From the NCBI GenBank assembly GCA_016188965.1, contig JACPGT010000002.1:84125-148124 (forward strand): a DNA stretch of 64,000 nucleotides, read 5' to 3'. Below the pieces are notes generated by a model, which worked only from the letters and a program-made list of their open reading frames with translations, had not been told where the DNA came from and made no database searches. Shown in pieces: positions 40 through 53,789 of this stretch. The stretch comes from Candidatus Micrarchaeota archaeon (GTDB lineage Archaea; Micrarchaeota; Micrarchaeia; Norongarragalinales; Norongarragalinaceae). Made by a program: the position numbers and the translations under genes. Every line of letters starts with the position of its first letter. Position 1 is the first letter of the stretch.

Positions 40-417
40 ATGACTCAATATTTGTTGGATGCCAGCGCCATCCTGCACATCGTGGGCGGCACGCCTCAAG
101 GCGCTCGCATCCGCGACTTGGTCCGGAACGGCGAATCCGCGACCAGCATCATCTGCTACTGCGAGGTCTTGAACAAGGCGGATTTGGATAAGCTGGCCAA
201 GGCGGAGGCATTCATGTCCAACTTGCTTGTCTTTCCTTTTGACGTTTCGGACGGCTCGACGGCCAAGAAAATCCAGTTGGACTGCCGCCGAAACGGCGGA
301 TACGTTCCGACGTTGGATTGCATGGTCGCCGCCACCGCCATCCAGTATGACTGCGAATTGGTCACGTCCGATTCGGACTTCGAACGCATCGGCGGCCTAA
401 AGAAACACCTCTTCTAA
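40..417 (+). CDS. PIN-domain ribonuclease (VapC-like toxin)
   Basis: 125-aa ORF with ATG at 40. N-terminal LLDAS and C-terminal VTSDSDF acidic motifs fit the PIN fold. Any partner antitoxin would lie before the window edge. Confidence 0.65.
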   Translation: MTQYLLDASAILHIVGGTPQGARIRDLVRNGESATSIICYCEVLNKADLDKLAKAEAFMSNLLVFPFDVSDGSTAKKIQLDCRRNGGYVPTLDCMVAATAIQYDCELVTSDSDFERIGGLKKHLF

Positions 418-1119: not shown

Positions 1120-2625
1120 ATGCCGTTGAGTGATTTTGACCGTGGCCGCCTTCATCAGTTCGAAAAGGGGAAAACGGCACGTAGGATTCGTTCCAATTTT
1201 GAAAGACTGAGCCGCTTCGAAGCCCATGCCACGGGCGAACGGGAAGAGCGCGAGCGTTTCATTCAGAAATACGACGGCCTGCTGAACCTAAACGACAGGC
1301 AAATCGAGATTTTGAACGGGTTGTCTTTGCCGGAACTGAAAGCGTTGGACCTTATTCCTCCTCGTTTCCGCAAGCCCTTCATTACCCAGTTGCCCGTTCT
1401 TGTCCAACGTGACTTGGAACGGTGGAAAAAACAGGAAAGTCCTGTCCTGCATAACGACCACGTTCGCCTAGACTTCACTTTGAAAAAAGGCGGCGGCGAT
1501 GAAATTCCCAGTACTGGCGGGGACTCCTCTGATCTTCTTGGCATCGATGATCGCCATGGGCTTTTCACCATGTTGGACTTCGAAGGCAAGGGCGCTTCCG
1601 CTAATGAGCCCCGCGGAATGGTTCAAGGCCTGTTGCGCGGTCACGTCAATTCGGTGCGTTGGGTGGCCAATGGAGTCCGCAAGCTCACAGGCAACCGCGT
1701 GAATTTGCTTAACCTCCTGCCTCAAAAGACCCTACATCGGCTGTTGCTGTTCATGTTGAACAGCACGGAACGCACGCATGACTTGCATTTTCCCGACGTT
1801 TCCTGCTATGGAACCGCGGGGCTATTCCAAGTTGACCCCAAGCGGAAACAGGTGACGCTTCACTATGTGCATTTGGGTGGTGAACCTTTGTTTGTATTGC
1901 GTAAACAAGGCGACGGCTCTTTCAAGGTAGAGGCGCACGGTGTCGCGGGCCCGGTTCCAGAAAACCCGGAAACGGAAGTTGAAGGCTGGGACGAGGGAAT
2001 CGGTGAACGTCCCTTTGGAAACGAACTGTATCGATCCACCATGGGCGGGGTCTTCGAATCGTACGCCACTACTTCCGATTTCCTCAAGAAGCTTGATGTC
2101 TATCGGAAGAAACATCCCAATCTTAATCCTCCGAAGATGACCGCAAAAAGCGCCCAAAAATTGTTCGAATTGCAAGATGGTCAGATGATGCAACTCAATT
2201 CGAATTATGCTGTCAAGTATGAGAAGAATCGCTTCCATATGCTATCCGCGGAAGGCAGCCCGTTTACCAAAGTCAACACCCTCAAGCTCGGCGTTGGAGA
2301 CAAGGTCGTATCCTTTACGGACGGACTTACCGAGGCGATGAGCCATGACGGCGAACCGTTTGGCCACCACCGCATCCTTTCGATTCTGCGCGAAAATGGC
2401 CACTTGAATGCCGAAGAACTCTCCGGCGTACTCAAAACCGCTCGCGAAGAGCATATAGGCTCCAACATCCAGGAAAACGGCTACACGCCGGACGACATGC
2501 GCATCCGCGTGTTTGAAGTGGCTGAAAATACGAGTGTGCCCAGGCCCCGCGTTCCCTTCGGAGAGCGCTGGCAACGCTTCAAAGACCGAGTAATGCAATC
2601 CTGGAAACGTTCAAGAGCTGCCTAA
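1120..2625 (+). CDS. hypothetical protein with PP2C/SpoIIE-like phosphatase region
   Basis: 501-aa ORF. LDFEGKGASA and FTDGLTEAMSHDGEPFGHHRI resemble SpoIIE/PP2C metal-binding motifs. The N-terminal half is unassigned. Confidence 0.4.
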   Translation: MPLSDFDRGRLHQFEKGKTARRIRSNFERLSRFEAHATGEREERERFIQKYDGLLNLNDRQIEILNGLSLPELKALDLIPPRFRKPFITQLPVLVQRDLERWKKQESPVLHNDHVRLDFTLKKGGGDEIPSTGGDSSDLLGIDDRHGLFTMLDFEGKGASANEPRGMVQGLLRGHVNSVRWVANGVRKLTGNRVNLLNLLPQKTLHRLLLFMLNSTERTHDLHFPDVSCYGTAGLFQVDPKRKQVTLHYVHLGGEPLFVLRKQGDGSFKVEAHGVAGPVPENPETEVEGWDEGIGERPFGNELYRSTMGGVFESYATTSDFLKKLDVYRKKHPNLNPPKMTAKSAQKLFELQDGQMMQLNSNYAVKYEKNRFHMLSAEGSPFTKVNTLKLGVGDKVVSFTDGLTEAMSHDGEPFGHHRILSILRENGHLNAEELSGVLKTAREEHIGSNIQENGYTPDDMRIRVFEVAENTSVPRPRVPFGERWQRFKDRVMQSWKRSRAA

Positions 2626-6698: not shown

Positions 6699-7427
6699 CT
6701 ATGCGGATTTGGTGAATTCCGCCAACGCCTTATAGCGTTCCTCCAGCACCTTGACGGCGCGGAAGAACTGCTGGCGGGCCGGAATGTTGTTGTACGATTC
6801 GACCAGGAAGATGACGTCGTCCTTGGCCGGCGGCTCAACCTTGCCTTCGCAGCTTTCGCACACCTGCGACATTTCCGGCAGGTCGTCGACTTTTCCGACC
6901 AGTTCGGACTGCGCGGCCACCATGACTTTGGCGCATTTCTTGCATTTCTGCGAAAGCTTGAACTCGTGAACCAGGCCGTAGCTTGCGATGGCGCTTTGGA
7001 ACTTGGCGTTGGCTTTCGCCGTTCCCACCGAGGCGGTCGCTTCCAAGCGGAGGCGCTGTCCTTTACCCAGCTTCATCAGCGGGATGTGCACGAACGCCGG
7101 CTTGATGACTTCGTCCTGCGACACCAAGTCGCCGGAGTACACGGTCTTTTCCTCGTCCGTCGCCTCGGCATCCAGCGAAAAAGACACCTGCGCGCCGGCC
7201 GATGCCTCTTCGAACGTCAACGGAATCTGTCCCAGGCGGTTGGCCAGGTACTCGTTGAACAATGCCGACGTGTTCTCGTAGAAGTTGACCTCGTCGATGG
7301 CGAACGACGGCACGTCGGCGATGATGGCGCGGCGCAAGGCGTTGAGGAACGAAAGGCGGGCTCCGCTGATGCGGTACCAAGCCCGGTTCGTGCCTTTTTC
7401 CGCCAACAGTTGGACTTTCATGGCCAT
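6699..7427 (-). CDS. rpoD: DNA-directed RNA polymerase subunit D (Rpb3-like)
   Basis: LSFLNALRRAIIADVPSFAIDEV and a Cys-rich insert (KCKKCAK..CESCEG). Follows S11. The ORF start is TTG, so the first ATG (7427) is used. Confidence 0.9.
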   Translation of the reverse strand: MAMKVQLLAEKGTNRAWYRISGARLSFLNALRRAIIADVPSFAIDEVNFYENTSALFNEYLANRLGQIPLTFEEASAGAQVSFSLDAEATDEEKTVYSGDLVSQDEVIKPAFVHIPLMKLGKGQRLRLEATASVGTAKANAKFQSAIASYGLVHEFKLSQKCKKCAKVMVAAQSELVGKVDDLPEMSQVCESCEGKVEPPAKDDVIFLVESYNNIPARQQFFRAVKVLEERYKALAEFTKSA

Positions 7428-7434
7428 GAGCAAA

Positions 7435-7953
7435 TCAAACCCTGCGTCCGCGTTTTCCGCCCGGCCGCTTGGTGCTGTCCGTCGGAATCGGCGTCACGTC
7501 TTCGATGCGTCCCACCCGCAGGCCTGAGCGGGCCAAGGCGCGGATGGCTGCCTGTGCGCCCGTGCCCGGGGTCTTTGATCCGTGGCCGCCGGGGGCGCGC
7601 ACGCGGATGTGGATGCCGACGAGGCCGCGTTCTTTCGCGGTCTCGGCCGCCTTGAACGCGGCCTGCATGGCGGCGTACGGCGAGCCTTCCTCGCGCGAGC
7701 TCTTGACCATCATGCCGCCGGAAGCAACCGCAATGGTCTCGGCGCCGGACAGGTCGGTGATGGTGATGATGGTGTCGTTCTTGGACGAGTACAAATGCGC
7801 GATGCCCCACTTGCCTTCCTTGGGCATCACTTTCGTCGGCCGCTCGTCGAAGCGACGGGGTCCGCGCGGCGCGTTGCGGCCATCGGTGCGTGGAGCCGGG
7901 GCGCTGGGCGCGGCGGGGGTGTTGGTGTCAGGAGTTTTTGCGTCCATAATCAT
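7435..7953 (-). CDS. rps11: 30S ribosomal protein S11 (uS11) with Ala/Pro-rich N-terminal extension
   Basis: [47 protein letters not shown]. Confidence 0.95.
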
Positions 7954-8528
7954 GCCGCCTCAGGTTGGGCCTCTGCGGGCGTTGCCGGCTCTTCGGCCGC
8001 TTCCGCCTTGACCGGAGTCGAAGCGGTGCCTTCCGCAGGCGCGGCCAGCTGGATGGGCTTCTTGAACCACGAAATCTGGTCTTCTTCGGAAAAGCTGACC
8101 AGATACGACGGCGACGTGACCTTGTTGCCGCTGACCGCGATGTGTCCGTGGGTGATCAGTTGGCGGGCGCCGCGCACCGTCTTGGACAAATGCTTGCGCG
8201 CCACGATGGTCTGCAGGCGCCGGCCCAGGATGTCCTTTGTCGTCAGCAACAGCACGTCGTCGACTTTCAAATCGGGATTGCGGATAAGGAATTTCTTGAC
8301 GCGGCCCAGCAACTGTTCGGTGCGGCGTTCCAAATCCTTGCCCTTGCTCGACAACAAACGTCTGGCCTCGCGGCGGATGCGGCGCAACATCGTCTGCATG
8401 CGCCACAGTTCGCGGGCGTTCTTCAAGCCGAATTCCGTCCGTAGGGCCTTTTCGTCTTCGATGCGCTTTTTATCCCACAAGCGTTTGGGGCCTTCAAAGC
8501 GTTTGCGCAATCGTCCAGGGTCTCCCAT
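7950..8528 (-). CDS. rps4: 30S ribosomal protein S4 (uS4)
   Basis: [20 protein letters not shown] and S4 domain [31 protein letters not shown] overlap with S11. Confidence 0.95.
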
Positions 8529-8534
8529 TCAAGC

Positions 8535-9185
8535 TCACTTCTTCTCCGCTTTCTTGTCGCCGGCAGCCGGAGCGGCGGTGGCACCCTTCTTGAGCGACTT
8601 CTTCATCACGCCGACGGTCATGCCCGAGCGGCCCGTGGATCGCGTGCGCTGGCCCCGCGTCTTCTGGCCCATCTGGTGGCGCCAGCCGCGGTACGAACGC
8701 ATGTCGACGTGCTTTTCGATGTCCTGCTTGACGGAAAAACGCAAATCCGACATGACGCGGTGCATGGGTTTTCCCGACTCGGGGTCGATGGGCCGGTTCA
8801 AAAGGAACGTGGGAACGCCGTAATTCGTCGGGTTCTTGATGATGTCTTCGAACGACTTGAGTTGTTCATCCGTCAGGTTGCCGACGATTTCGTCGCCAGC
8901 AAAATCGCTCTTGGCCAAGACGGCACGCGTCAGGGACGCCGAAAGGGTGTGGCCGATGCCAGGAATGTGGCGCAAGGCGTGCTTGACTTGGACTTGGCCC
9001 GGCATGTCCTTGCCGACGATGCGGATGATGCCTCGGAAATTCTCCTTTTCCTTGCCGGTCTTCTTGGCGATCGGCTTCGGGGCGTTCGGAGCGCTTTTGG
9101 CAGCCGGACCTGCGGCGGCCGCGGCCTGCTTCTGGTTGAACTTGGGCTTGGATTTTTCGTCTTTTGTCGTTTCAATCTTTTCCAT
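8535..9185 (-). CDS. rps13: 30S ribosomal protein S13 (uS13) with Lys/Ala-rich N-terminal extension
   Basis: FRGIIRIVGKDMPGQ..ALRHIPGIGHTLS..YRGWRHQMGQKTRGQRT. Start set at ATG 9185. Confidence 0.9.
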   Translation of the reverse strand: MEKIETTKDEKSKPKFNQKQAAAAAGPAAKSAPNAPKPIAKKTGKEKENFRGIIRIVGKDMPGQVQVKHALRHIPGIGHTLSASLTRAVLAKSDFAGDEIVGNLTDEQLKSFEDIIKNPTNYGVPTFLLNRPIDPESGKPMHRVMSDLRFSVKQDIEKHVDMRSYRGWRHQMGQKTRGQRTRSTGRSGMTVGVMKKSLKKGATAAPAAGDKKAEKK

Positions 9186-9226
9186 GCGTGCATTCCTTTT
9201 TTGTAATCCGCGTCTTGAAAATAAAA

Positions 9227-9482
9227 CGCCGGGACTGAGACTTTCAGCGAAGCGAGCTGACCTGCGGGTCATTCGCAACTTGGGTTCGCGTTCGAACTCA
9301 GAAGGGCTTGCGCCCACAGACTTAACGGCCCGATGACGACCTATTCAGCACAGCGATGGTCTTGCGACCATCGCATGCTCCTGCGGTCCTTCCTTCTAGG
9401 AATCGGGTTTCCAGGTCTGCGCATTGCCGTTCTGCCATCCCGGCGTGAAAAGCAAAACGAATGCCTTCTGGCATTCGCATCT
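9227..9482 (-). ncRNA. candidate structured non-coding RNA (class unresolved)
   Basis: Gene-free gap of about 430 nt. Minus strand has a TTTAAATA box at 9504-9511. Terminal 8-bp pairing CGCCGGGA/UCCCGGCG, nested GACCUG/CAGGUC and CCCGAU/AUCGGG. Two GCAA-capped hairpins. Followed by a U-run at 9218-9226. Confidence 0.3.
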
Positions 9483-9617: not shown

Positions 9618-10520
9618 TCATCCGGCTCTGGCGCTGCGCGAGGTGCCCATGATATTAGCGACGTACTTTTGCGTTTCATCATATGGCGGGATTCCGCGGT
9701 ATTTTTCCACGGCGCCGAATCCGGCGTTGTAGGACGCAAGAGCGCAGGCGTATTCCTTTCCTTTGCAGTAGGCTTTTTTCGCGGAGGATTGGTAGACCTG
9801 GGCCATGTGTTTGGCCCCTGCGCACAACGCCGGCAATGGGTCGAACGGATTTGCAAGGCCGACGGATCTGGCAGTGTCCGGCATGAACTGTGCGATGCCC
9901 TGCGCACCGGCCTTTGATCGTGCGTTCGGGTCGAAGCCGCTTTCGATTTCGATTTGCTTTTGGTAGTAGCCAGGGTTTATTCCGAATTGAGCGGCCGCGG
10001 TTAAGGTGAGCTTCCGGTAGAGCTGGGGTCCTGGTTTGCCTTTGGCCTCTCGCTTCAATTGCTGAATGCAGGCCTCTAAAGTGACTCGGTTGGGGTCCGG
10101 CCGGTCGACCGATGACGTCGGGGTCGAAGCCATTGCTCCATAGGCCTGGGCTAATCCTTCCGCGATTTGTTCGGCCAGCTGTTGTTGGCGGGCTTCGGTT
10201 GCAATCGCCGGCTCGTCGATGGAGCCCATTTCGACCAGGACGGCCGGCATCTGGGTGTTGCGCAGCACGCCGAGCGTGATGGGCTTGTAGGGTTTGCCTG
10301 TGACGTAGGTGCCCACGAAGGCGGATGCCGCCCCGTCCGGATAGACTCCTTTGCCCTCTTTTTCCAGTAAAACGTCCAAGCCCATGGTTTTGGCGATGGT
10401 TTGCGCCAGGGTCTTGCTTTGTTCCGAGCGGCCGTCCTTGGTATCCGGGTAGATGACTCCGGCGGAACAAAGCCGGTGGTCCTGCAAGCCGATGCCTGCG
10501 AATTGGCTGATTTGCGCCAT
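9618..10520 (-). CDS. murein hydrolase fragment: C-terminal part of amidase_3 plus SLT lytic transglycosylase (downstream part of a frameshifted gene)
   Basis: VLRNTQMPAVLVEMGSIDEP is the amidase_3 C-terminus. EIESGFDPNARSKAGAQGIAQFMP..ASYNAG are SLT motifs. This reading frame stays open upstream of the ATG through ADVSLNKRAGIAN..FLSLHVN. Confidence 0.8.
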   Translation of the reverse strand: MAQISQFAGIGLQDHRLCSAGVIYPDTKDGRSEQSKTLAQTIAKTMGLDVLLEKEGKGVYPDGAASAFVGTYVTGKPYKPITLGVLRNTQMPAVLVEMGSIDEPAIATEARQQQLAEQIAEGLAQAYGAMASTPTSSVDRPDPNRVTLEACIQQLKREAKGKPGPQLYRKLTLTAAAQFGINPGYYQKQIEIESGFDPNARSKAGAQGIAQFMPDTARSVGLANPFDPLPALCAGAKHMAQVYQSSAKKAYCKGKEYACALASYNAGFGAVEKYRGIPPYDETQKYVANIMGTSRSARAG

Positions 10521-10561
10521 TTCCTTTACGGCTTTGACCCGATCGCAGTTGACGTGGAGGC

Positions 10562-12577
10562 TTAAAAACGCGTCGGGTTTTGGTTGTTGTGCGTTGGCGA
10601 TTCCGGCCCTTTTGTTGAGCGATACGTCTGCCTCGCCTTGAGTTGCTCTACCAGGCGTTCCGCGACTTTGAGCGTGACTTGGTGTTCGTGCAGCGTGGCT
10701 TCCTGCGGGTTGGCCCCGACGTATGAGCCTTGGCCTTCCGAATAGGGTGTTCCGTGCCCGGCGTCAATCACGAATTTCTTCCCCTGGAGGCTCGCGGCGG
10801 TGGCCGTTTGCGTGCTGAACGTCTGGCAGGTCAGTTTGCCGGCGATTTTCTGGTCGGTGCGGGGTTTGCGGCTGATGCCTTCTTTTTCCGTGTACTTGGA
10901 AAAATCGGTGGTGGCGTCGCTGAGGTACATGTTCAAGACGAGGCCGTTGACGGCGTTGCCGAAGTTCTGCCGGATGGGTACCTCGACGTAATAGAACCCT
11001 GCGTAATTCGGCCGTTCCGAAAGCGCCTGGATGTAGACCGGTGTTGTGCCGGCCGGCAGGTTGCGGTATTGTTCAGGGTATTGCACGCCGGGCTTGTGCA
11101 GGACGGCACGAGCGGCGAAACATCCGCCTTTGTCGTTGCCGTAGCCGGAGAACGCGACGTCGAAGAAAGCGTCTTTGGCGCCGTCTTTCTGGTCGACGTA
11201 GAAATAGACGCACGCTTTGTTGCCGCCGGAAAAATCGGGAAGCGTCTGGAACGATGCGTCTTGGGGGCACGATCCCGGGTTTGACTTGATGGCGACGATG
11301 CGGGTTTTCTGCGTCTGCGTTTCCGCGAACTCCATCGTTTCTTGAGAAGCCGTCTTGCCGGCGAATTCCAGCAACGCGTCTTTGGCGGCTAAGACTCTCG
11401 GAGCATACCCGTTGGCCAGGTACGGCTTGGGGTTGACGGCGCAGGATGCTTCCACGCATCCGATGCGCACGCCGTAATGCAGGTGGACGGCTCCGTTGGC
11501 GCTTCCGGTGCCTCCCATGGTGCCGAGGGTTTGTCCTTGTTTGACGGCTTGGCCGACTTTGAGTGACGGAACGTCTTGCAGGTGACAGAACGTGCCGTAG
11601 ATGGGTTTGCCCATGGTGGCTGAACAGCCCGTGAATTCCATGCTCATCCCGTTGCCGCACGCGCCGCCTTCGTGCGCTCCGAAGACGCTGACGATTTTTC
11701 CGTCAGCCGGCGCGATGATGGTCGGATTTCCCACGATGTCGATTCCATCGTGCGAGTAGCTTCGGCCGTTGTACTGCCTCGGGGTGCCGAACTCGCTGGT
11801 GATTTCGGGGTTTTTCAGTGGCGGGATGAACCGGCACCGCTCTTGGATTTCCGCAGAAGGCAAGAGGGATTCTGACAGCAATCCATACCGCAGTCCGGTG
11901 GGGGTGTCGTCCGTCGACGGCGCGTCCGTCAAGCGGCCGCTTGTTTCGGCGACGGATTCCGCGTTCGTTCCTTCCGTGGATGCGTGCGTCCCATCTGCGT
12001 TGCTTTGCCGGGTGTTCGCATCGGCGCGGGCGTTTTGGACCGGTGGCGTTTTGGGCACGCAGTTCTTGAATGCCACCGCCCTGGCGTCGGTTGATACCTG
12101 GATTTGGCAGGCGGGGTTGACCGCGGCCGGGTACGTTTCATCCAGCATGGTGGTGAGGATCGTCGTGGCGGCGGCCGTGGCATCCGGCGCCGCATACACG
12201 CGCAGGATGTCCCGGTCCAGGAAAATGACGTTGTAGTCTTTTCCGGAAGCGGGGAACGAGAACCGTTCTGACGCCGGGGCGTTGTCTACCGGGTCCGGTA
12301 GCGCGAATGGCATGGGGTTGGCCGATACGCGTTGGAGGTATCCCGTGCCGATGCGGATGTCGATTCCCACTTCTCCTTCGAACGTCTTGTCCTTGATGGC
12401 GCAGTACAGGTAGGATTCCGGCGTCAGCGAGGCGCCGGCGCAGTTGCCGGAAATGGCGGAAATGCCGTGGATTCCCAGCTTGTTCAGGTCGAACAGCGTC
12501 GTGGCGGGTGCGGCCAGGATTGATGGCAATGCGATGACCAGAAAGACCAGCGGGAGTGGACTTCGTGCTGACGCCAT
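10562..12577 (-). CDS. secreted murein hydrolase fragment: signal peptide, M23 peptidase, N-terminal part of amidase_3 (upstream part of a frameshifted gene)
   Basis: MASARSPLPLVFLVIALPSILA signal. M23 HxxxD/HxH motifs (SHDGIDIVG, AVHLHYGV). C-terminal FVIDAGHGTPYSEG begins amidase_3 and then runs into a stop. Start at ATG 12577 because the ORF start is TTG. Confidence 0.8.
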   Translation of the reverse strand: MASARSPLPLVFLVIALPSILAAPATTLFDLNKLGIHGISAISGNCAGASLTPESYLYCAIKDKTFEGEVGIDIRIGTGYLQRVSANPMPFALPDPVDNAPASERFSFPASGKDYNVIFLDRDILRVYAAPDATAAATTILTTMLDETYPAAVNPACQIQVSTDARAVAFKNCVPKTPPVQNARADANTRQSNADGTHASTEGTNAESVAETSGRLTDAPSTDDTPTGLRYGLLSESLLPSAEIQERCRFIPPLKNPEITSEFGTPRQYNGRSYSHDGIDIVGNPTIIAPADGKIVSVFGAHEGGACGNGMSMEFTGCSATMGKPIYGTFCHLQDVPSLKVGQAVKQGQTLGTMGGTGSANGAVHLHYGVRIGCVEASCAVNPKPYLANGYAPRVLAAKDALLEFAGKTASQETMEFAETQTQKTRIVAIKSNPGSCPQDASFQTLPDFSGGNKACVYFYVDQKDGAKDAFFDVAFSGYGNDKGGCFAARAVLHKPGVQYPEQYRNLPAGTTPVYIQALSERPNYAGFYYVEVPIRQNFGNAVNGLVLNMYLSDATTDFSKYTEKEGISRKPRTDQKIAGKLTCQTFSTQTATAASLQGKKFVIDAGHGTPYSEGQGSYVGANPQEATLHEHQVTLKVAERLVEQLKARQTYRSTKGPESPTHNNQNPTRF

Positions 12578-12622
12578 GAGCAAATAGAAGGCGGCTTCCA
12601 ACTAAAAAGGCTTTTCCGAGCC

Positions 12623-13552
12623 TTAAGCGCCGCTTTTATGCGTCCGGATGACGCGTTCGATGTCAAACGCCATGCCTTTTTTCTGGTTCCGGATTTGTTC
12701 GCCGCCCAGCAGGGCTTTCGCGAGGCAGACTAATTCGCCTTTTCCGGACACGATTTGGACTGGCTCATCGACCTTGATGCCTTCATCCAGCGCCAGGATG
12801 CCGGGAATGGCGAGGTTGGCGCCGGTGGTGATGGGCTGGATGGCGCCGTCGGACACGACTACTTTCTTCAGCGCGATGGCCTGCTCGACGGGCACCAGCA
12901 TGGCGCGCAACGTCTTTTCGTCGCCTTTTTCTTTGTAGAGCCAGACTGCGTCAGAAACGTCCTGCAAGGGGTGCGCTTGGCTTTCGGTGAATCCGGCGGC
13001 CACCGTGCGGCGCAGTTCGGCCATGAGGCCTCCGCATTGCAGCACTTCACCCATGTCGTAACAGAGCTTGCGGATGTACGTGCCGGCCTCGACTTCTGAT
13101 TCAAACAGGACGAATTGGCCGTCGTTTTCCAGCAATTCGAGCCGGTAGACGTGGCGGGTGCGCAGGACGCGCTTGACGGCGCTTTTTTTCGGCGGCGTCT
13201 GGAAAATGGGTCCGCGGAAGCGCGAAAAGACGCGTTCCAACTCGGCGTCTGCTTTCGCCTCGCGCAGCTTCATGAGCGCGATGTAGGTCTTCCGGTCCTT
13301 CAGCAGGAAGCCGGCGGCTTTCGTGGCTTCCCCCAGCAAAACCGGCAAGACGCCGGAGACTTCCGGATCCAAGGTGCCTGAGTGGCCTGCCTTTGGCACG
13401 TTGAGCATGCGTTTGACCCACGCGGAGACTTCGTGCGACGACGGCCCGCAGGGCTTGTCAATGACGGCGATGCTGTAGGGCAGCAAATCGGCGACGGTCT
13501 TTTCGGAAAGCATCTTGCCCCAGGTGGATTCTTCCTCGTGCAGCGTAATCAT
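12623..13552 (-). CDS. cbf5: H/ACA RNP pseudouridine synthase Cbf5 (TruB family, PUA domain)
   Basis: IDKPCGPSSHEVSAWVKRML..AGHSGTLDPEVSGVLPV catalytic Asp motif, with a C-terminal PUA-like region. Confidence 0.92.
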   Translation of the reverse strand: MITLHEEESTWGKMLSEKTVADLLPYSIAVIDKPCGPSSHEVSAWVKRMLNVPKAGHSGTLDPEVSGVLPVLLGEATKAAGFLLKDRKTYIALMKLREAKADAELERVFSRFRGPIFQTPPKKSAVKRVLRTRHVYRLELLENDGQFVLFESEVEAGTYIRKLCYDMGEVLQCGGLMAELRRTVAAGFTESQAHPLQDVSDAVWLYKEKGDEKTLRAMLVPVEQAIALKKVVVSDGAIQPITTGANLAIPGILALDEGIKVDEPVQIVSGKGELVCLAKALLGGEQIRNQKKGMAFDIERVIRTHKSGA

Positions 13553-34319: not shown

Positions 34320-35483
34320 TCAAGCAATCTTCTGCATTGCTTTTTCCCAAGCCGCCGTGATGCTGACGACGTAGTTGCGCGTCTCGCCAAAGCGGTGGTT
34401 GCGGCAGGTGTTGGCGTTTTTGGTTTGAACTTCGCGGTCGTAGGGTCCGGCGTTGTAGGCGGCCAAGGCGCATTCGACGTTGCCGCTGGTCCTCAATTGG
34501 CGGGAGAGATATTCGACGCCGCCGCATATGTTGAAGTACGGGTCGAATACTTTGTCCTGTCCGATGCCCATGCCGGCCGCCGTCCCCGGAGTCATCTGGG
34601 TGTAGCCCTGCGCGTATTTCGATTCGGCGAACTGCCTCCCGCCGCTTTCCTGACCCAAGACCGATCGCAGCAGTGAATACGGAACGTGGTACAATTCGGA
34701 CGCCTTCTTGAAGATGCAGGTCGGATCCGCCGTGCGCCATGAGCGGCCGCGGTAAGTCGCCGTGCCCGTCTGGGGGCAGGCGGATTCAACCTGCTTGACG
34801 CAGGCAGTCACGCCGGCTAGCTGGACTTGCGTTGTCTGGAATTCCGCCCGCGTTCTGACATCGTACGCGCCCGCCGTGGTCACGGGCTTGGGCTGCGTTG
34901 GCGTCACGGTTGCTGGGGCGGTTTTGCAGATGGTTTCGACGTCGCGTTGTGCGATGCCGGCGCGGCGGAGTTCGAAGTAGAGGGAGGGAAATGCGTTGGC
35001 TTCGGATTTTCCGGTTTTGCCGATGGTTTCGCCTTTTTTGACGTCGCTGCCTTCGGTTGGGTTAGGTCCGGTTTGGAGGTAGCCGTATGTTGTTTCGACC
35101 GTCGGGTTTGTCGCGTGTCGGATGGTGACGTATCGTCCGTAACCTAGCAAGTCGGTTCTGCCCGAGGCGATGACTTTGCCTCCGCTTGCGGCCCGTACGT
35201 CTGTTCCTTCGGGTAGGCGGATTTCGACGCCTTGGCGGATGCGTTTTTCGTTGTTGAGGTTTTTGTATTCGGCTCCGTATGCGCCGGTGACCGGTGCGTT
35301 GACGGGGCAGGTGAAGCTGGTGGTGGAGTAGGTGGTGCCGGTGGGTCCGGGTTTGATTTGTTCTAGTGTGAATCCGGAGAATAGGCAGATGTGGTTGGAC
35401 GGGCAGGATGGAAGCGTGAGGGCGAAGATGAGGCTGGAGTAAAGCAGGACGATTAGGATTGCAATCCCCGCAATGCGCCGCAT
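34320..35483 (-). CDS. secreted murein hydrolase: degenerate M23/LytM-like module plus SLT lytic transglycosylase
   Basis: Signal/TM MRRIAGIAILIVLLYSSLIFA. LytM-like core GVEIRLPEGTDVRAA..GYGRYVTIRH..LYFELRR lacks HxH. C-terminal SLT motifs VLGQESGG, YTQMTPGTA, LAAYNAG. ATG 35483. Confidence 0.8.
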   Translation of the reverse strand: MRRIAGIAILIVLLYSSLIFALTLPSCPSNHICLFSGFTLEQIKPGPTGTTYSTTSFTCPVNAPVTGAYGAEYKNLNNEKRIRQGVEIRLPEGTDVRAASGGKVIASGRTDLLGYGRYVTIRHATNPTVETTYGYLQTGPNPTEGSDVKKGETIGKTGKSEANAFPSLYFELRRAGIAQRDVETICKTAPATVTPTQPKPVTTAGAYDVRTRAEFQTTQVQLAGVTACVKQVESACPQTGTATYRGRSWRTADPTCIFKKASELYHVPYSLLRSVLGQESGGRQFAESKYAQGYTQMTPGTAAGMGIGQDKVFDPYFNICGGVEYLSRQLRTSGNVECALAAYNAGPYDREVQTKNANTCRNHRFGETRNYVVSITAAWEKAMQKIA

Positions 35484-35538
35484 GCGCAAAGCAGGGAGCG
35501 GCACCTTAAAAGAGTTCTTTTGCTTTGGACGCAAACAA

Positions 35539-36597
35539 TCATGAGATGTACTTCGTGGGAAGCAAAAAGGCGCCGTAGTCGCCACCGGTGCGCAGTTCAA
35601 AATGCAGGTGGGCTCCCCGCGAGCTTCCACGGTCCGGATCGCTTGACGCTCCCCCGGTCAGACCCACTGCCTGCGATGTACTGACACGCTGGCCTTTGAT
35701 GACGTCGCGGCGTTTGAGATGGCCGTACCGTGCGAAGACCGGTTTTCCGTTCATGCGGCAGTCGCACTGGATCACGACTTCGCCGCCGTAACCGCCGACG
35801 TCCTCCGCCCAACTGGTGTGCACGACTCCATCGCATGCCGCCGTTGCCACGGTTCCGGAAGCCACTCCGACATCGTCCCCTTTATGGTACCGGTAGCCTC
35901 CTGAACCCGTGGGCCGCAACTCCCCGGCGTGACTTCCCACCAAGGCCGGATAGTTGCCCGGCACCGGAGACTTGAAGTGGCAAGCGCCGGTCTGGGGCAG
36001 CAATGCAGCGGCCGGCGGAGCCGTGGCCTTGGTTTTGCAGATGTTTTCGACGTCGCGCTGCGCGATGCCGCCGCGGCGCAACTCAAAATAAAACGAAGGA
36101 AACGCGTTGGCTTCGGATTTTCCGGTTTTGCCGATGACTTCGCCTTTTTTGACATCGGTGCCTTCGACTGGGTTGGGGCCGGTCTGAAGATACCCATACG
36201 TCGTTTCGACCGTCGGGTTCGTCGCGTGGCGGATGGTGACGTACCGGCCGTAGCCGAGTAGGTCGGTTCTGCCGGAGGCGATGATTTTTCCGCTGGCCGC
36301 TGCTCGTACGTCTGTGCCTTCTGGTAGGCGGATTTCGACGCCTTGCCGCACCCGCTTCTCGCCATTGAGATTGACATATTCGCCGCCGTATGCGCCGGTG
36401 ACGGGTGCGTTGACGGGGCAGGTGAAGCTGGTGGTGGAGTAGGGGGTGCCGGTGGGTGTGGGTTTGATGGGTTCGAGGGTGATTCCGGAGAAGAGGCAGA
36501 CGTGGTTGCCCGGACACGACGGCAAGGTTAATGCCGATGCGGCGGCTGCCGAAAAAACCAAAGCGAATACAGCCGCCAGTACGGCGCGGTTTTCCAT
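35539..36597 (-). CDS. secreted murein hydrolase: degenerate M23/LytM-like module plus catalytic M23 peptidase
   Basis: The N-terminal ~190 aa are nearly collinear with 34320-35483. The C-terminal module has YHKGDDVGV (HxxxD) and GAHLHFELR (HxH). Confidence 0.8.
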   Translation of the reverse strand: MENRAVLAAVFALVFSAAAASALTLPSCPGNHVCLFSGITLEPIKPTPTGTPYSTTSFTCPVNAPVTGAYGGEYVNLNGEKRVRQGVEIRLPEGTDVRAAASGKIIASGRTDLLGYGRYVTIRHATNPTVETTYGYLQTGPNPVEGTDVKKGEVIGKTGKSEANAFPSFYFELRRGGIAQRDVENICKTKATAPPAAALLPQTGACHFKSPVPGNYPALVGSHAGELRPTGSGGYRYHKGDDVGVASGTVATAACDGVVHTSWAEDVGGYGGEVVIQCDCRMNGKPVFARYGHLKRRDVIKGQRVSTSQAVGLTGGASSDPDRGSSRGAHLHFELRTGGDYGAFLLPTKYIS

Positions 36598-37856: not shown

Positions 37857-38072
37857 ATGGCGAACATGACGTTGTCCGTTCCGGATGCATTGCAGAAGAA
37901 AATGAAAAAATATCCCGTGAAGTGGAGCGAAGTGGCACGAAAAGCGTTCGAGCGGCAGGTGTGGGTGTTGGAGCACATGGACGAGCTTTTCAGTGAGAGC
38001 ACCTTGACGGAAGAAGATGCGGAACGTATCGGACACAAGTTGAAAGCCGAGATACGGAAGCGGTTCAAATGA
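37857..38072 (+). CDS. putative antitoxin (VapB-like) upstream of a PIN toxin
   Basis: 71-aa ORF with ATG 37857. Its stop overlaps the PIN gene start (ATGA). N-terminus MANMTLSVPDALQKKMKK resembles RHH/CopG-type antitoxins. Confidence 0.55.
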   Translation: MANMTLSVPDALQKKMKKYPVKWSEVARKAFERQVWVLEHMDELFSESTLTEEDAERIGHKLKAEIRKRFK

Positions 38073-38479
38073 GGCTCGTCGTGGACACCAACCGGCTGAT
38101 GGCCGCTTTGATCAAGGATTCGGTGTCTCGACGGATTCTGTTTAGCCCCCGGTTTGAATTTCATACCGTGGCCCTCCTGCGGCAGGAGATTTCAAAGCAC
38201 GAAATTGAAATCGCGGAAAAATCCTCTTTGCCCCTTTCTCTTTTCTATCGCCTTACCGAGTCACTATTTCAGCGCACGCTCGTGGTCGATGAAATCCAAG
38301 TTCAGGCATGTATGCCGCCGGCAAAAGACGCCATGGATTCGATTGACCCGGACGACACGCCTTTCATCGCAGCCGCGTTGGCCATTGGTGCCGACGGCAT
38401 CTGGTCGGACGACCGGCATTTCGAACGCCAGAATCTTGTGCCGCTCTTCAAGACGCAGGATTTGTTCCGGCTTCTTTGA
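38069..38479 (+). CDS. PIN-domain ribonuclease (VapC-like toxin)
   Basis: MRLVVDTNRLMAAL.., DPDDTPFIAAALAIGADGIWSDDRHF acidic PIN residues. Confidence 0.7.
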   Translation: MRLVVDTNRLMAALIKDSVSRRILFSPRFEFHTVALLRQEISKHEIEIAEKSSLPLSLFYRLTESLFQRTLVVDEIQVQACMPPAKDAMDSIDPDDTPFIAAALAIGADGIWSDDRHFERQNLVPLFKTQDLFRLL

Positions 38480-43117: not shown

Positions 43118-43519
43118 TCATTCCGTTTTAATGACTCGTGTATCCGCGATTCCTTTGAAGTCGGAATCCCTCGTCACCAACGTCGCGTTGAGTTTTCGTG
43201 CCGTGGCCAGAGACAGCGCGTCAACGGTGGAAAACTGTGGGTGGCGTAACTTAAGCTGGAGCGCATGGAACACGATTCCCTCGTCCAATCCAATTAGCTT
43301 GCTGCGGTTCTTGATTTGGCCGCCGACGTATTCCACTTCTTTGGGTTTTCGTTGCTGGTAGTATCGCAGCACTTCGTACAGCGTGAGCAGGGAGCAGTAC
43401 CGCTCCGCGTTATTTTCAAGGATCCTTTCCGCTTGGCTCGCGCCGGGATGGTCGTCGAAGAGTGCGATCCATACTCCGCTGTCAATGAAAATCCTTTTCG
43501 AATCGCCCATGGAATTCAT
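43118..43519 (-). CDS. vapC: PIN-domain ribonuclease (VapC toxin)
   Basis: IFIDSGVWIALFDD.., LVTRDSDF. Overlaps the upstream AbrB-type gene. Confidence 0.75.
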   Translation of the reverse strand: MNSMGDSKRIFIDSGVWIALFDDHPGASQAERILENNAERYCSLLTLYEVLRYYQQRKPKEVEYVGGQIKNRSKLIGLDEGIVFHALQLKLRHPQFSTVDALSLATARKLNATLVTRDSDFKGIADTRVIKTE

Positions 43520-45993: not shown

Positions 45994-48900
45994 TCAATTT
46001 TCTTGGCGGAAGCGGATGGCGACGATGCCGAAGAGGATCAAGCCGGCGAACAGGGCTGCCCAGGGCAGTTGTTCGGGCCACGAGGGCAGGAATAGTTTGG
46101 GCGGGGTGCCGGACGTCGTTGTGGAGGATGACGTGGGGGAAAGAAAAGGGCTGTCGGCGGGCACGCCTTGGCTGGTGCCGTCGGCGTTTCCGCTGTAACC
46201 GATGCCTTGCGTGGCAAAGGCCGGGTTCATGGGCACGTCTTGTCCGTTGTACACGTTGATGGCGCCGGTGGATGGGTTGAACGTCAGCATGCCGTTTTGT
46301 CCGCGCGCGGCCAAAAGCGCCAGGGCTTCTTTGAGTCCGTCAGGCCCTTCCGCGTTGAGGGTGGGTTGTCCGTTTTCGTTGGTCAGGTTGATCTTGAAGG
46401 GCCCTTTTTCCGTGGGGATGACCAGGTTGCCGTTTCCGTCCTTGGTGATGGGCCCGGTGATGGTGTAGTCGGTGGCTTTGCCCGTGTTCTTGTCGATGAC
46501 CCGGAGCTTGCCGTCGGGCGTGATGTAGTAGATGTGGTCCTTCGTTTCGAACGAGGTGATGCCTTCGGTTCCGGCGATCTTGTCCAACGCGGTGTTGAGC
46601 TTGTTGGCCGTGTCTTCCAAGCCGCGTTTGGCTTGGACTTGGATGTCGGCACCTTTGCCGCGCGTTCCCATCGAGATGCTTTGGATGTTCTGCGACGACG
46701 TCTCGAAGATGGAGTAGATGATGAGGCTGATTTGTTGGGTCGCGGAGTCGTAGTGCAGGGCGCCGTTGTCGCCGATGATGCTGACGAGCGTGCCGATGGA
46801 CTGCGAGTTTGAGCCGGCCGTGCCGTAGAGGACGACTTGTCCGTTGTTGCGGACGCTGATGCGTCCTCCTTGCGTGATGGCGGCTCGCAGGTCTTCCGGC
46901 GTGGGCACGGTTGCGCCGACGCCGGTGCGTGAGACGAAGTCGATTTGGCCGTCCATGAGGCTGGCGTCGCCTTCCGACGTCTGTACTTGGCGTACTTTTC
47001 CGATGGCTTGCGTGAAGTCGGAGCCGATCTGCCGTCCGGTCAATTCGAAGATGGCGCGCGAGAGGTCGCATGGCGGGTTGACCAGCACGCTCTGTCCGGT
47101 GGGCGCGATTTCCAAGAAGGCGTCCGAGCCGCCGGCGAGGGTGGATTGGATGATGGTGTTGGGGATGATGATGCGGGCCAGGGCTTGTATCTTGTTGCGA
47201 GCCATGGCGCGCAGTTTCCAGATGTCGTTCTGGAACGAGAGGGCTTTGCTGCCGTCGGCGTTGTTGGCCTCCAGTCCGTCGCCGAAGGTCAAGGACCGGC
47301 CGTCCTTGCTTTGGAGGCGGTCCTGCAGGCCGCAGGCGGAGCGGACCAGTTCGTACAGGCCACCTTTGATGGAGGACGTGGATTGGTCGATGTGGACGTA
47401 GAGCATTTCCGGCGTGCTGACGAATCCGCCTTGGTCCTGCGTGACGGCGCGCAGGTTGAGCACGTCCTTGAGGTTCTTGATGGATGCGGCGGCTTGGGCT
47501 TCTTCCGTCTTCGCGCCGATGACTTTGCTCAAACCCAGCTTGGAGAGCGGTTCGGAGATGGCGGGTAGCTTGTCGGCGACCACGTTGGCCGGTTTGGTCA
47601 CGCGTTCGGGAATGGTCTGCCAGGTCAGGATGTTGTGCATCTGGTCGCGGCAGTTGGACGTGTATCCGATGGCTTGGTTGCCGATGTAGAACTTCCATAG
47701 GTCGGGTGGATTGGTCCAGTCGAGGAACTCCAGGCCGCCGGCGACGGCCGAGGACCAGAAGTCGGTCTGGCGGAGGTAGTTGCGGAACGGCGTGAACGTG
47801 GAGCGGATGATGCTCAAGGCGGATACGGCGACGCTTCCGGCGAATGCGAGGCGGTACTTGTTCTTGAACTCGGCGTATTCGTCCTTGTCGCAGGCCACTT
47901 CCTTGCCGTAGTTCTCGTTGATGTCCAGGAATTCGAGGGTGGTGAGGAAGACGCCGGCGCCCAGGGCGCGTTCGTTCAGTTCGAAGAGCTTGCGGCTGGC
48001 GATGAACGGGATGGTCAGCGAGAAGAGGCTGGTGAGTGACTTGAGGTTGTTGTCCTCCAATGCCGGTTCGGCGATGATGTTGTTGGAAACGAATGCCAGG
48101 CTGGTGGCGGATTCGGGGCTTTGCTTGTTGGCGAAGGTGCGCATGTCTTCGTAGTTCAGCGTGTACGCCGGCCCGCGCCAACGGCTAAGGATGTTGATGC
48201 TGCCGTCGTCCTGGCTTTGCAGGCGCGTGGTCGACTCGTAGTTGGGCGTTTTTTGGGCTTCCGGATAGTTGAGCAAAAGCAGGTTCTTGGCGTAGAACGC
48301 TTTTTCCGGCACGAGTCCGAAGCCGGCGTATTTGGCGGCCAATTCCTGGATTTTGCCGATGCCTAAGAAGCCGGAGGCCTGCTTGAAGTCCGCCAACACC
48401 TTCTTGTTCGCCAGGATGCGCAGGAACTTGTCGTCTTTCTGGTGGCGGGCTTGGAATAGGACGCCGTTGTTGAGCGTGAATCCCATGCGGGCAGGGCCCA
48501 GCCAGCCGCCAGCCAGCATGAAACTGGCGGTGATGCGCGAGTCCAGCGTGGTCTTGACACGCCGCAGGTTCTGGAGGTTGTGTTCGGCTTCCTCGATTTC
48601 TTTGGCCAGGCCGCCTTCATAGTTGACGGGCAGTTTGTTGTTGGCGACGTATTCCTCCAACTTGTTGACGCCGGTAACCGGTGCGCCTACCGGGGTGCCC
48701 ATCGAGTTGTAGTATCGGAGCGTGCCGGTCGCGTCGACGTCGAACGACGAGACGGGGCCGATGCCGGGTATGGTGTGGCCTTCTTTCAGGACGTACCGGT
48801 TGGCGGCGTTTTTCTGCAGTTTGCCGGACAGTTCTTCCTGGATCCGTTGCGCGAGTATCGCGTTGGGCTCGCGGGCCTGGATGTTGACGCGGCGTTCTTC

Positions 48901-50127
48901 CTTGATTTTCTTGATTTGGCTCAAGTCGCGGATGGCGCCGAACGCGGCGATGGAGCCGATGAGCGAGGAGTAGAAGTCCGCTTTGGTGTACGCGTAGCTG
49001 AACACGATCCAATCGCGGTAGAACTCGGGAACGACGAGGTTGCCTCCGCCGTTGAGGTTCAGATAGCCCACGACGCTGGAGCCGTAGATGCGTTGGTTCA
49101 GCGGCTGTCCTCCGCGCTCGGACGTCAGTTCGGCCGTGGCCACGCCGGTGGCCGGTGACGTGTACGTCCCTTTGATCAGTTGCGTGTTTTTGGTGCCGTA
49201 CGTCAGGTCGGCGTCGAGAATGGCGATGTATCCGACGCGGCCGTTGATGATTTCGTCCTTCAAGAGGCAGCTTTCCGGGTCGATTTTGTGGCTGCGGAAC
49301 ACGTCGGCCATGCTGACTTCCTTGCCGGAGCCCGGCATGATCAGCTTGAACCGTTCGTACGGCTCCAGCTGTTTGGCGTCTTGCTTTTCCTGTTCTTCCT
49401 GGCCTTTCTTGTCGGTCTTTTCCTTCAGCAGATCGGTAATCTGGTTGAGCACTTCCTGGTATGGCGATTCTTTCGGCTCCTTGGCCAGGATTTTCTTGGC
49501 TTCCGCGACGCTGATTTCGCCGTTGTTGCGGACCGTCTTCTTCTGGTCGTCCCACAGGCCGAATTTCTTGGCGATTTCCTCGTCGGTCTTGCCGGTCAGG
49601 CCTTGCAGCTTGGCCACGTCGAGTATGTTGATCGTCTTGGACAAATCGGGGTTTTGGCTGTCCTGTTTTTTCCTTTCCTTGCTGAACGGGTCGTTGGGCT
49701 TGTCCGCCGAGCGGGCCAATGCGTCCAAATCGGACAAGTCGTTCAGGAAGTCGCCTTGAAATGCGCCGTTGGGTGAGAACAGGAAGTTCTGCAGTTGGTG
49801 CCGTTCGGAATCCGAAATGGAGTGGATGGTGCAGGCCGGGCCCGTCGTGGCGCCTGCAGGACGGTTCACCGGCGTCGGCGTGGGGGGCGTGGCCGGCGTC
49901 GGAGGAGTGCCGCTCGTCGTTGCGGGTCCAGGGGTCGGGCTGGTGACCGTAGTCGTGGTGCCGCCCGCAGGCACCGGCGTTGGCGTGGCGAAGTACAGTT
50001 CGCGAAGCGGTTCTGAAGCCGCAGGGCTGCTTTGCGCCCACGCCAAGGGGGCGAACATCTCGACGGACAGCATCAGCAGGATGAAGAGGGAAAATACGCG
50101 TTGGCGCATATTTGAATAGTCAGACAT
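45994..50127 (-). CDS. giant secreted surface protein (signal peptide, Thr/Pro linker, C-terminal Ser/Thr linker and TM anchor)
   Basis: 1377 aa from ATG 50127. [21 protein letters not shown] signal. [38 protein letters not shown] linker. C-terminus [36 protein letters not shown]. Confidence 0.7.
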
Positions 50128-50266
50128 CGTGCCTTTATAGTAATGCCGGCAATGGCCGATGCAACCACCCATCGGCGCGCATGGCTGTTCGGCAAAGCCC
50201 CGTTTTGCTGTTGAATCGTTGCTGGTTCCGATGGCATACGGAGCCTTGCGGTCCTGACCAGGCTTT

Positions 50267-52356: not shown

Positions 52357-53193
52357 TTACGGCGCGTTGGGGTCGGGGTGCCAGATGCAGAACGACAATG
52401 CATAGCTGCGCAGCTTGCGGTCGGGCGGGTTGACGGCAGTGTTCACGTAGATGACTTTGAAGGGCACTTGGACAGTGACGACGTCGGGGCTGACGTCTTT
52501 GGCCCCGGCGCAGATGCCGAATTGCGAGGGCGCGCCAACCCTGAGGAACCGGGGATAGTCCGTAATCAGGCGGCTGTTGAGGTACTCTCCGCTGCCTTTG
52601 GGCATCACCCGCACGGCCGCGCCGTCGGCCGAGTCCGTGTCGATGACGTCGAATCCGTAGTAGAATCCGGCGTACCAGAATGGCTTCATCAGTTCCTTGA
52701 CGGCGCACTTGTAGGCCGTGATGCCGGCGGCTTTCGTGCCGTCGAACTCGTCATCCAGCTTGGCGTCGAATTCCGCCAAGTCGCGCTTGAGCAGTTCGGT
52801 GACGGAGAAGCTGCCGCTGTACTTTTCCAGTCCCTTGCATCCGCTCACGGGATCCGCCAGGTCCCGGTAGATTTCCAGCGGCGTGGTGGCGGGGTTGCCC
52901 GCGCGGTTGACGGTGGACTCGCGGTTGTCGATGTTGCGCAACGTCGACGCATCGATGTAGTAGGATGCCTTCACCACGCTCTGCATGTAGTTGAGGATGT
53001 AGGCCGAGCGCAGGACGCGGTCCTGCTGCGTACCGTACGTCGTGACGAAGCTGAAGATCAACGCGGACGAGATGGCGGCCAGCAGAAGCAGGTTGACGCC
53101 GTCAAAGATGGCGGCTTGTCCTCGCTGGAACCGCGGTCTGTAGTGCCGGCCGGTGGCGGCTTTCTTTTTCAGATTTTCCCACGTTCCTTCCAT
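52357..53193 (-). CDS. type IV pilin-like protein (class III signal peptide)
   Basis: MEGTWENLKKKAATGRHYRPRFQRGQ/AAIFDGVNLLLLAAISSALIFSF. ATG 53193. Confidence 0.6.
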   Translation of the reverse strand: MEGTWENLKKKAATGRHYRPRFQRGQAAIFDGVNLLLLAAISSALIFSFVTTYGTQQDRVLRSAYILNYMQSVVKASYYIDASTLRNIDNRESTVNRAGNPATTPLEIYRDLADPVSGCKGLEKYSGSFSVTELLKRDLAEFDAKLDDEFDGTKAAGITAYKCAVKELMKPFWYAGFYYGFDVIDTDSADGAAVRVMPKGSGEYLNSRLITDYPRFLRVGAPSQFGICAGAKDVSPDVVTVQVPFKVIYVNTAVNPPDRKLRSYALSFCIWHPDPNAP

Positions 53194-53789
53194 ACGATCA
53201 CGTTGATGAGGCCCAGGCCGTTGGTGGGCAACCCGTCGATGATGGCACACGGTACGGCGACGGGGTAGGTGAACGTCACGGCGTCCGCCGGCACCTTTAG
53301 GATTTCGTTCGTTCGGGGGTTGGGCACGTTGGTGCAGTACGTCCACGTGTGTCCATATACTTCGTTGGGGTCGCTTGATTCGGTCCGTGTCTTTTCCAGG
53401 TACGTCGGGCTCAAGCGGGCTTCCTGGGGCGCCGGATTCTCCCTCGGATAATAGAACCGTATCCCGTGCTGGCCTGGCGGTTCGACGCAGTATCGTTTGA
53501 TGGTCACGACGAACTGGATGTGGTTGGACAATGCGTATTTCTTGAGGTTGTTGTCACACGTCTTCTTTTCGAATTCGGTCTGGTTTTGGATGAGGCCTTT
53601 TTCCGTCACGATGTATGACAGACCCAACCCGGCTTGCCTTGTTTCCAGCGTCCGGTTCTTTCCCGTGACCAGTCCGTTGGCGTACACGAGGGTGCCGACG
53701 AACAGCAGGACGGCGGCGATGATGGGAAAGATGCTGGGCAGGTCGTCCCCCAATGGGCCTACGAATCCGCGTTTTTGTTTCATACGCAT
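53169..53789 (-). CDS. type IV pilin-like protein (class III signal peptide)
   Basis: MRMKQKRG/FVGPLGDDLPSIFPIIAAVLLFVGTLVYA. Only the last 206 codons of the 466-aa ORF are used. Confidence 0.6.
   Translation of the reverse strand: MRMKQKRGFVGPLGDDLPSIFPIIAAVLLFVGTLVYANGLVTGKNRTLETRQAGLGLSYIVTEKGLIQNQTEFEKKTCDNNLKKYALSNHIQFVVTIKRYCVEPPGQHGIRFYYPRENPAPQEARLSPTYLEKTRTESSDPNEVYGHTWTYCTNVPNPRTNEILKVPADAVTFTYPVAVPCAIIDGLPTNGLGLINVIVWKERGKI

Follow-up and report, generated by a model that had tools for sequence, protein, structure and literature searches.

The window considered here is a stretch of 64,000 nucleotides (nt) from Candidatus Micrarchaeota archaeon (assembly GCA_016188965.1, contig JACPGT010000002.1), and its subject is a disrupted gene for a peptidoglycan (murein) hydrolase at positions 9618-12577. 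The gene lies between cbf5 (12623-13552) and the rps13-rps4-rps11-rpoD cluster (6699-9317), and all of these genes, like every feature of the hydrolase gene given below, are on the minus strand. It appears to be the remnant of a secreted M23-Amidase_3-SLT hydrolase of about 997 amino acids (aa), collinear with two intact homologues, P0108 and P0113, which occupy the same cbf5/rps13 slot in related contigs.

The coding sequence is divided between two open reading frames (ORFs). ORF A runs to a stop codon at 10562-10564, either from an ATG at 12577 (671 aa) or from an upstream TTG at 12601 (679 aa). ORF B occupies 9618-10520 (300 aa, stop 9618-9620), and its listed ATG (10518-10520) follows the ORF A stop after a gap of 41 nt. 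The ORF B frame is +2/-1 relative to that of ORF A, and its upstream extension, open as far as about 10772, reads ..GEADVSLNKRAGIANAQQPKPDAFLSLHVN..; the two open frames overlap by about 210 nt (10562-10772). An original prediction, made from the DNA letters alone, had described a tri-catalytic hydrolase split in this way between cbf5 and the rps13 operon. The sequence bears out its account of the ORFs, including their coordinates, the 41-nt gap and the upstream-open second frame, and confirms the location.

The ancestral protein would have carried, in order, a signal peptide, an alpha/beta N-terminal domain (N-domain), M23, a beta-sandwich, Amidase_3 and SLT. The putative Sec signal peptide (MASARSPLPLVFLVIALPSILA/AP; 12509-12577) was judged by eye, and similar hydrophobic N-termini occur in the homologues. 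It is followed by the N-domain (..LFDLNK...FLD...DE...AFKNC; 12059-12508), which is family-specific and conserved in 11 homologues. The Peptidase_M23 domain (PF01551; 11459-11755) covers residues 283-381 of the 679-aa ORF and scores 47.4 bits against a Pfam gathering cut-off of 28.7 (E=2.3e-12). Its zinc-binding and catalytic motifs can be read directly, as the HxxxD of SHDGID (11735-11755), FCHL, and the HLH of VHLHYG (11471-11488). Next comes a second family-specific domain (CVYFYVDQKDGAKDAFFDV...; 10778-11284), a predicted beta-sandwich conserved in 12 homologues. At the other end of the gene, in ORF B, lies the SLT (GH23) lytic transglycosylase domain with its E-S motif (PF01464; 9684-10001), which reaches 62.3 bits against a cut-off of 21.3 (E=3.9e-17) and contains EIES (9933-9950, the catalytic Glu-Ser), AQGIAQFMP and SYNAG.

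The Amidase_3 domain (PF01520) is split as encoded. Its N-terminal part (KKFVIDAGHG...LHEH...VEQLKAR; 10631-10780, Pfam positions 2-41) is in the ORF A frame and includes the first two zinc ligands. Its C-terminal part (DVSLNKR..SLHVN..LVEMG; 10149-10628, Pfam positions 51-173) is in the extended ORF B frame, includes the third ligand and the catalytic Glu, and scores 55 bits (E=1.4e-14). The three zinc ligands (His/Glu/His) and the catalytic Glu are all kept, in DAGHG, LHEH, SLHVN and LVEMG, which are invariant columns in the intact homologues, but these motifs of the window gene are distributed over two reading frames. When one base is inserted anywhere from 10625 to 10637, a single Amidase_3 match over positions 2-173 is obtained at 72-73 bits (cut-off 27), so that the continuous match over the junction on which the original prediction had staked its one-gene reading does exist. 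NCBIfam agrees with the Pfam domain calls, and the profile matches together with the full set of catalytic motifs support all three of the proposed hydrolase assignments. No cell-wall-binding domain family (LysM, PG_binding, SPOR, SH3b and others) is matched at E<=0.01 in ORF A or ORF B.

The two family-specific domains are labelled non-catalytic and are assigned no further function, although, as a guess, they may be wall-binding or spacer parts. An AlphaFold model of the N-domain has an alpha/beta fold (predicted local distance difference test, pLDDT, 79.7; predicted template modelling score, pTM, 0.79), and a fold search of the PDB with it finds nothing significant, the best matches being the N-terminal non-catalytic domains of GH20/GH84 hexosaminidases at E>=0.12. 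The model of the middle domain is all-beta (pLDDT 79.3, pTM 0.73), and its PDB fold search likewise gives nothing significant, with generic Ig-like matches only (E>=0.41).

The relatives of this gene were found by an exhaustive HMMER search with ORF A, which returned 11 proteins at E<1e-30. Word-index protein searches with ORF A, ORF B and an N-domain profile returned only SLT-domain matches, the query itself or the fragment P0107. The family is defined here by a signal peptide, the N-domain (..LNK..FLD..DE..AFKNC), M23 and the middle beta-sandwich (CVY.Y.D..DGAKD.F.DV). The window gene has these parts, matches 10 members at E=1e-33 to 1.6e-47, and is located between cbf5 and rps13-rps4-rps11-rpoD. 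In three members, P0108 (999 aa), P0113 (995 aa) and P0110 (1136 aa), a single frame encodes a putative signal peptide, N-domain, M23, middle domain, Amidase_3 (97-116 bits) and SLT, and each of the three aligns in order with ORF A and then ORF B. ORF A aligns to residues 11-625 of P0108 and the ORF B frame to residues 620-891.

These homologues indicate that ORFs A and B are two remnants of what was once a single gene of about 997 aa. This conclusion follows because the intact, single-frame homologues are collinear with the two ORFs and lie in the same slot, because the ATG of ORF B is internal, and because ORF B has no signal peptide. The ATG falls within KEMAQI of the amidase domain, which aligns with KEMAEI, RETQGI and AEMKGV in the three intact homologues, two of which share the Met; by this alignment it is an internal amidase Met and no genuine start. 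The proposal of a single gene of about 1000 aa behind both ORFs therefore stands, since its architecture recurs in the intact orthologues (995 and 999 aa) and in the 1136-aa homologue.

The lesion itself is best described by codon counts. In L027, the contig that encodes P0108, 12 codons (36 nt) separate CAG GCC CGA (QAR) from GAC GTC TCG CTC (DVSL), and the residue spacing in P0113 and P0110 is the same. The window reads AAG GCG AGG, then CA, then GAC GTA TCG CTC, with 2 nt in place of the 36. Compared with the three intact homologues, 34 nt (11 codons plus 1 nt) are therefore missing, corresponding to the segment G-(A/G)-x-V-(V/T)-M-T-R-x-x-D. The junction lies within 10626-10633, where the codon of R649 occupies 10631-10633, the CA 10629-10630, and the D of DVSL, in the other frame, 10626-10628. 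Beyond it, ORF A continues out of frame (QTYRSTKGPESPTHNNQNPTRF) as far as its stop codon (10562-10630), a tail that has no counterpart in the homologues. The lost segment is the strand at Pfam consensus positions 42-50, also present in solved Amidase_3 structures, so that the fold is incomplete, without the strand (consensus ..VvltR..) that lies between helices 1 and 2; no G..V.MTR segment was found elsewhere in the window in any frame.

A 34-nt deletion thus appears both to have taken out a conserved Amidase_3 beta-strand and to have shifted the frame. The break had been predicted at 10620-10650, and the junction at 10629-10630 falls inside that region, but the single-nucleotide frame change proposed for it does not hold, since 12 codons in three intact homologues face 2 nt here. 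Because a core strand is lost, the amidase could not be restored by one extra base. Alignments to PDB entries and homologues show gaps of 4-9 residues that understate the loss, as the repaired query used in them counted 2-3 residues twice, with both frames read over the same bases. A 1-nt frameshift placed by Pfam score was also considered; the scores run from 61.7 to 73 bits across insertion positions, with a peak of 72-73 at 10625-10637. Because they vary so little, such a scan narrows the junction only roughly and is silent on the size of the deletion.

The slot between cbf5 and rps13 provides the context for this lesion. A family member is present there in all nine related contigs examined, intact in eight and ended by its contig in one. 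The M23, Amidase_3, SLT arrangement is found in L027 (P0108) and L029 (P0113), and in L031 in the second gene of a tandem, P0110, which follows P0111 (M23, Polysacc_deac_1, Amidase_2). Other relatives carry different modules: M23 x2, a weak CHAP match, Amidase_2 and SLT in L001 (1460 aa); M23, Amidase_2 and SLT in L017 (1272 aa); and M23 x2, GH3 and SLT in L018 (1295 aa). YkuD, SLT and M23 are combined in P0114 of L032, and YkuD, M23 and SLT in P0116 of L033, which is followed by P0120, a protein of 496 aa with the N-domain and M23. In the ninth, the short contig L028, only the start of the gene remains, with the N-domain and then the contig end. The fragment from that contig, P0107 (L028:1318-2016), has the sequence closest to the N-domain, with 67% identity over 119 aa. 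The C-terminal half of its 232-aa product is unrelated, with a weak WS_DGAT_C match, and on this 2-kb contig it is probably chimeric or itself disrupted.

The flanking genes of the window are well conserved in these relatives. Cbf5 of the window shares 82% identity with that of L001 (Candidatus Micrarchaeota), in keeping with the archaeal host that had been assumed, and 85-88% with those of the metagenome contigs L017 and L018; SecY, S4, S11, S13 and RpoD are 72-95% identical to relatives. The hydrolases, in contrast, are only 26-36% identical overall, compared to 80-95% for flanking proteins in the same genomes. Nor does architecture follow flank similarity, as L017 has the closest Cbf5 yet an Amidase_2 type of hydrolase. 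This low identity beside conserved flanks, and the decoupling of architecture from those flanks, indicate rapid divergence and cassette exchange. In L019, a more distant archaeon (Cbf5 47%), cbf5 and rps13 are only 240 nt apart. Because the slot is filled in nine of nine relatives and the two genes are adjacent in L019, the insertion appears to be clade-specific, old within its clade and still being remodelled. The recent horizontal acquisition suggested in the original prediction is contradicted by the presence of a family member in the same slot throughout. A prophage or mobile-element origin was considered and is excluded, as its synteny with ribosomal and RNA-polymerase genes is shared by all relatives.

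In some relatives the slot also contains a HEPN/nucleotidyltransferase pair (L032:1027-1697, near P0114, and L033:577-1247) and small uncharacterised ORFs, and it behaves as a small variable island within the ribosomal gene cluster.

Taken together, the locus is probably best explained as a member of a clade-specific family of hydrolases in the cbf5-rps13 slot, of which the window copy has been broken by a 34-nt deletion. A wider proposal, offered tentatively and with less than even confidence, is that the slot is a dedicated, fast-evolving site, that it houses one or two poly-catalytic murein hydrolases for secretion, with continual swapping, duplication and loss of modules, and that the window shows such a loss in progress. 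If the deletion is real, it would be recent, because the 336 codons downstream of the junction are still open and every motif in them is intact.

Several points weigh against the explanation by a broken family member. Both halves of the gene are otherwise flawless, which fits an artefact or a minority strain variant as well. The ancestral spacing is deduced from homologues that are only 51-59% identical to the repaired amidase domain. In addition, the known hosts of Micrarchaeota are Thermoplasmatales, archaea without walls. A bacterial partner of this archaeon is hypothetical, and secretion, activity and substrate are all predicted.

The strongest rival, itself rather unlikely, is that the break is an artefact of assembly or consensus polishing, or belongs to a minority strain variant, the gene of about 997 aa being intact in the real genome. 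The preservation of all catalytic motifs on both sides of the junction and the long open stretch after it would be expected under this rival, and no second copy of the window genome was found for comparison, either by exact look-up of the ORF B protein or by a metagenome scan with ORF A. However, a clean loss of 34 nt in surroundings that are neither repetitive nor homopolymeric is an atypical sequencing error, and the source contig is long (391,990 bp). General frameshift noise in the assembly can be ruled out, because some 18 conserved genes in the neighbourhood can each be aligned to relatives without a change of frame. On balance, we infer that a real deletion is a good deal likelier than an artefact.

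It is much less probable that the locus is a functional split gene, in which ORF A (a secreted M23 protein) and ORF B (an SLT protein starting at the ATG at 10520) are expressed independently. The short distance from the stop of ORF A to the ATG of ORF B and the intact SLT domain would permit such an arrangement, and M23-only and M23+SLT members of the family occur naturally. Against it, the ATG of ORF B is the internal amidase Met described above, and its product would have no signal peptide and would start partway through the Amidase_3 fold, with the first two zinc ligands missing. Moreover, a split of this kind occurs in none of the relatives; in eight related contigs one unbroken ORF encodes the hydrolase.

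The intact family members suggest what the ancestral enzyme would have done. It would be exported by Sec and then attack the bacterial wall outside the cell. There, M23, a zinc endopeptidase, would cut peptide stems or cross-links; Amidase_3 would cut the bond between N-acetylmuramic acid (MurNAc) and L-Ala, freeing stem peptides from MurNAc; and SLT would cleave the glycan strand with formation of 1,6-anhydro-MurNAc. The role of these activities could be attachment to or penetration of bacteria, their lysis, or scavenging. On sequence alone, attachment to a bacterial host, predation and scavenging are all candidate purposes. Bacterial peptidoglycan, which had already been named as the target, is likely the only sensible substrate, because every other module in the family (Amidase_2, CHAP, GH3, Polysacc_deac_1, YkuD) is also of a peptidoglycan-acting type.

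A substrate other than bacterial murein, such as pseudomurein, glycoproteins or the archaeon's own envelope, is quite improbable. M23 and SLT-like folds can act elsewhere, and the two family-specific domains may have other ligands, but the family combines up to seven murein-specific module types (Amidase_2/3, YkuD, a GH3 of NagZ-like type and a PgdA-like deacetylase among them). Pseudomurein, moreover, has neither the MurNAc-L-Ala amide nor the beta-1,4 bond between MurNAc and N-acetylglucosamine, which counts against it as the substrate.

As the broken window copy now reads, translation would end after residue 649 and a 22-residue nonsense tail. The exportable product would consist of the signal peptide, the N-domain, M23, the beta-sandwich and a dead amidase stub of 47 residues, and the remainder of the amidase with SLT would no longer be translated within the exported protein. 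The three-activity enzyme is thus predicted in the relatives but is absent as encoded in the window genome, and the description of this gene as tri-catalytic fails, since at most the M23 part would be made and exported. Programmed -1/+2 ribosomal frameshifting that fuses A and B, for which the overlap of the two frames gives room, is exceedingly improbable, since even a perfect shift would yield an amidase without 11 residues including the conserved strand, every homologue is encoded in one frame, and no slippery heptamer is evident at 10626-10640. It is plausible that the M23-only product could still work, because P0120 is a natural family member that consists of just the N-domain and M23.

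Two more putative murein hydrolases with signal peptides lie in tandem on the minus strand of the window at 34320-36597. They are an M23+M23 protein of 352 aa (35539-36597) and an M23+SLT protein (34320-35630), whose true start is probably MRRIAG.. near 35486. Their N-terminal parts are duplicates, marked by a 300-nt repeat (34920-35219 and 36031-36330, 84% identical). In tblastn, the SLT domains of L001 and L017 match the copy at 34320-35630, and no match is reported for the SLT of ORF B. With two further M23 hydrolases in the window, this small genome appears to invest repeatedly in such enzymes and may tolerate the loss of one SLT domain.

The window also contains features unrelated to the hydrolases. 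The S13 gene next to the slot (8535-9317, minus strand) has a Lys/Ala-rich N-terminal extension of about 60-100 aa, with the Pfam S13 match beginning at residue 99 of the ORF as listed. In relatives, too, the called S13 genes are long (208-249 aa). At 59023-62886 on the minus strand lies a 1287-aa secretion/pilus ATPase of T2SSE/FlaI type that is split by an intein with a LAGLIDADG homing-endonuclease domain. Three long ORFs near it, also on the minus strand, have no Pfam match (45994-50172, 1392 aa; 56624-58927, 767 aa; 53169-54569, 466 aa) and could encode surface or adhesion proteins. An ORF at 1120-2625 (plus strand) has a SpoIIE/PP2C phosphatase domain, and small ORFs at 40-417 (plus), 38069-38479 (plus) and 43118-43519 (minus) are candidate PIN-type toxins by eye.

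Physical interaction between DPANN archaea and bacteria is still an open question, and murein hydrolases are among the few genomic clues to it. The locus adds a Micrarchaeota family that was likely missed by earlier screens, as it has no recognised wall-binding domain, and that combines strict positional conservation beside essential genes with extreme turnover of sequence and modules. If the slot is indeed a dedicated, fast-evolving site, these Micrarchaeota would kill bacteria, feed on them or attach to them, in contrast to cultured Micrarchaeota, which live on archaea without walls, and the hydrolase repertoire would track the range of bacterial hosts or prey. The window copy also serves as a warning, since three activities were predicted from a broken gene that one base cannot repair.

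Among known systems, mosaic endolysins and autolysins include mycobacteriophage LysA, in which a peptidase is joined to an amidase or glycosidase and a binding domain, and staphylococcal Atl. These proteins resemble the Micrarchaeota family in carrying several wall-cleaving activities per polypeptide and in the wide swapping of modules among relatives. LysA and Atl act from within on the wall of the producer or host, or in cell separation (for Atl, see also PMC7679415), whereas the archaeal producer in this case lacks murein, its gene lies outside any prophage and a putative Sec signal peptide is present. The closest SLT domains (up to 59% identity) are found in bacterial VanY+SLT and M23+SLT proteins, in which SLT is likewise paired with a peptidase, but these matches cover only about 36-40% of ORF B. 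Protein searches gave no bacterial match to the N-domain, the middle domain or the full architecture.

Within the DPANN archaea, large secreted SLT-domain proteins of Woesearchaeota and Pacearchaeota have been read as tools for binding or degrading bacterial walls (PMC8204110, PMC9723730). These proteins (fam00969, Castelle et al. 2021, PMC8204110; AR20, Castelle 2015; Vigneron 2022, PMC9723730) are likewise long, secreted and of SLT/GH23 type, a comparison with fam00969 being made by description only. The present family differs in belonging to Micrarchaeota, in its length (about 1000-1500 aa compared to up to 3000 in those proteins), and in having two to three further catalytic modules beside SLT, two family-specific non-catalytic domains and a fixed position in the ribosomal cluster.

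It has also been reported that modular peptidoglycan hydrolases occur in about 5% of archaeal genomes, and one of them was shown to kill bacteria (Strock et al. 2025, PMC12352652). The S2 table of that study lists three Micrarchaeota genomes with such hydrolases, one of them, for example, with LysM+SLT, and its definition requires a known cell-wall-binding domain together with a catalytic domain (PMC12352652). Hydrolases of this kind, such as Woldo of Halogranum salarium (M23 + 2x PG_binding_1), share with the present family an archaeal host, a signal peptide, M23 and domain shuffling. The Micrarchaeota family has several catalytic domains and falls outside both that definition and that screen because it has no recognised binding domain. 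Moreover, the genes of Strock et al. are patchy and often plasmid-borne, whereas the slot family is chromosomal, syntenic and clade-wide. No published description of this family or its fixed slot was found, within an incomplete coverage of the literature. Secreted peptidoglycan hydrolases of DPANN archaea are therefore already documented; what is new here is the architecture and the conserved genomic position, represented in the window by a damaged copy.

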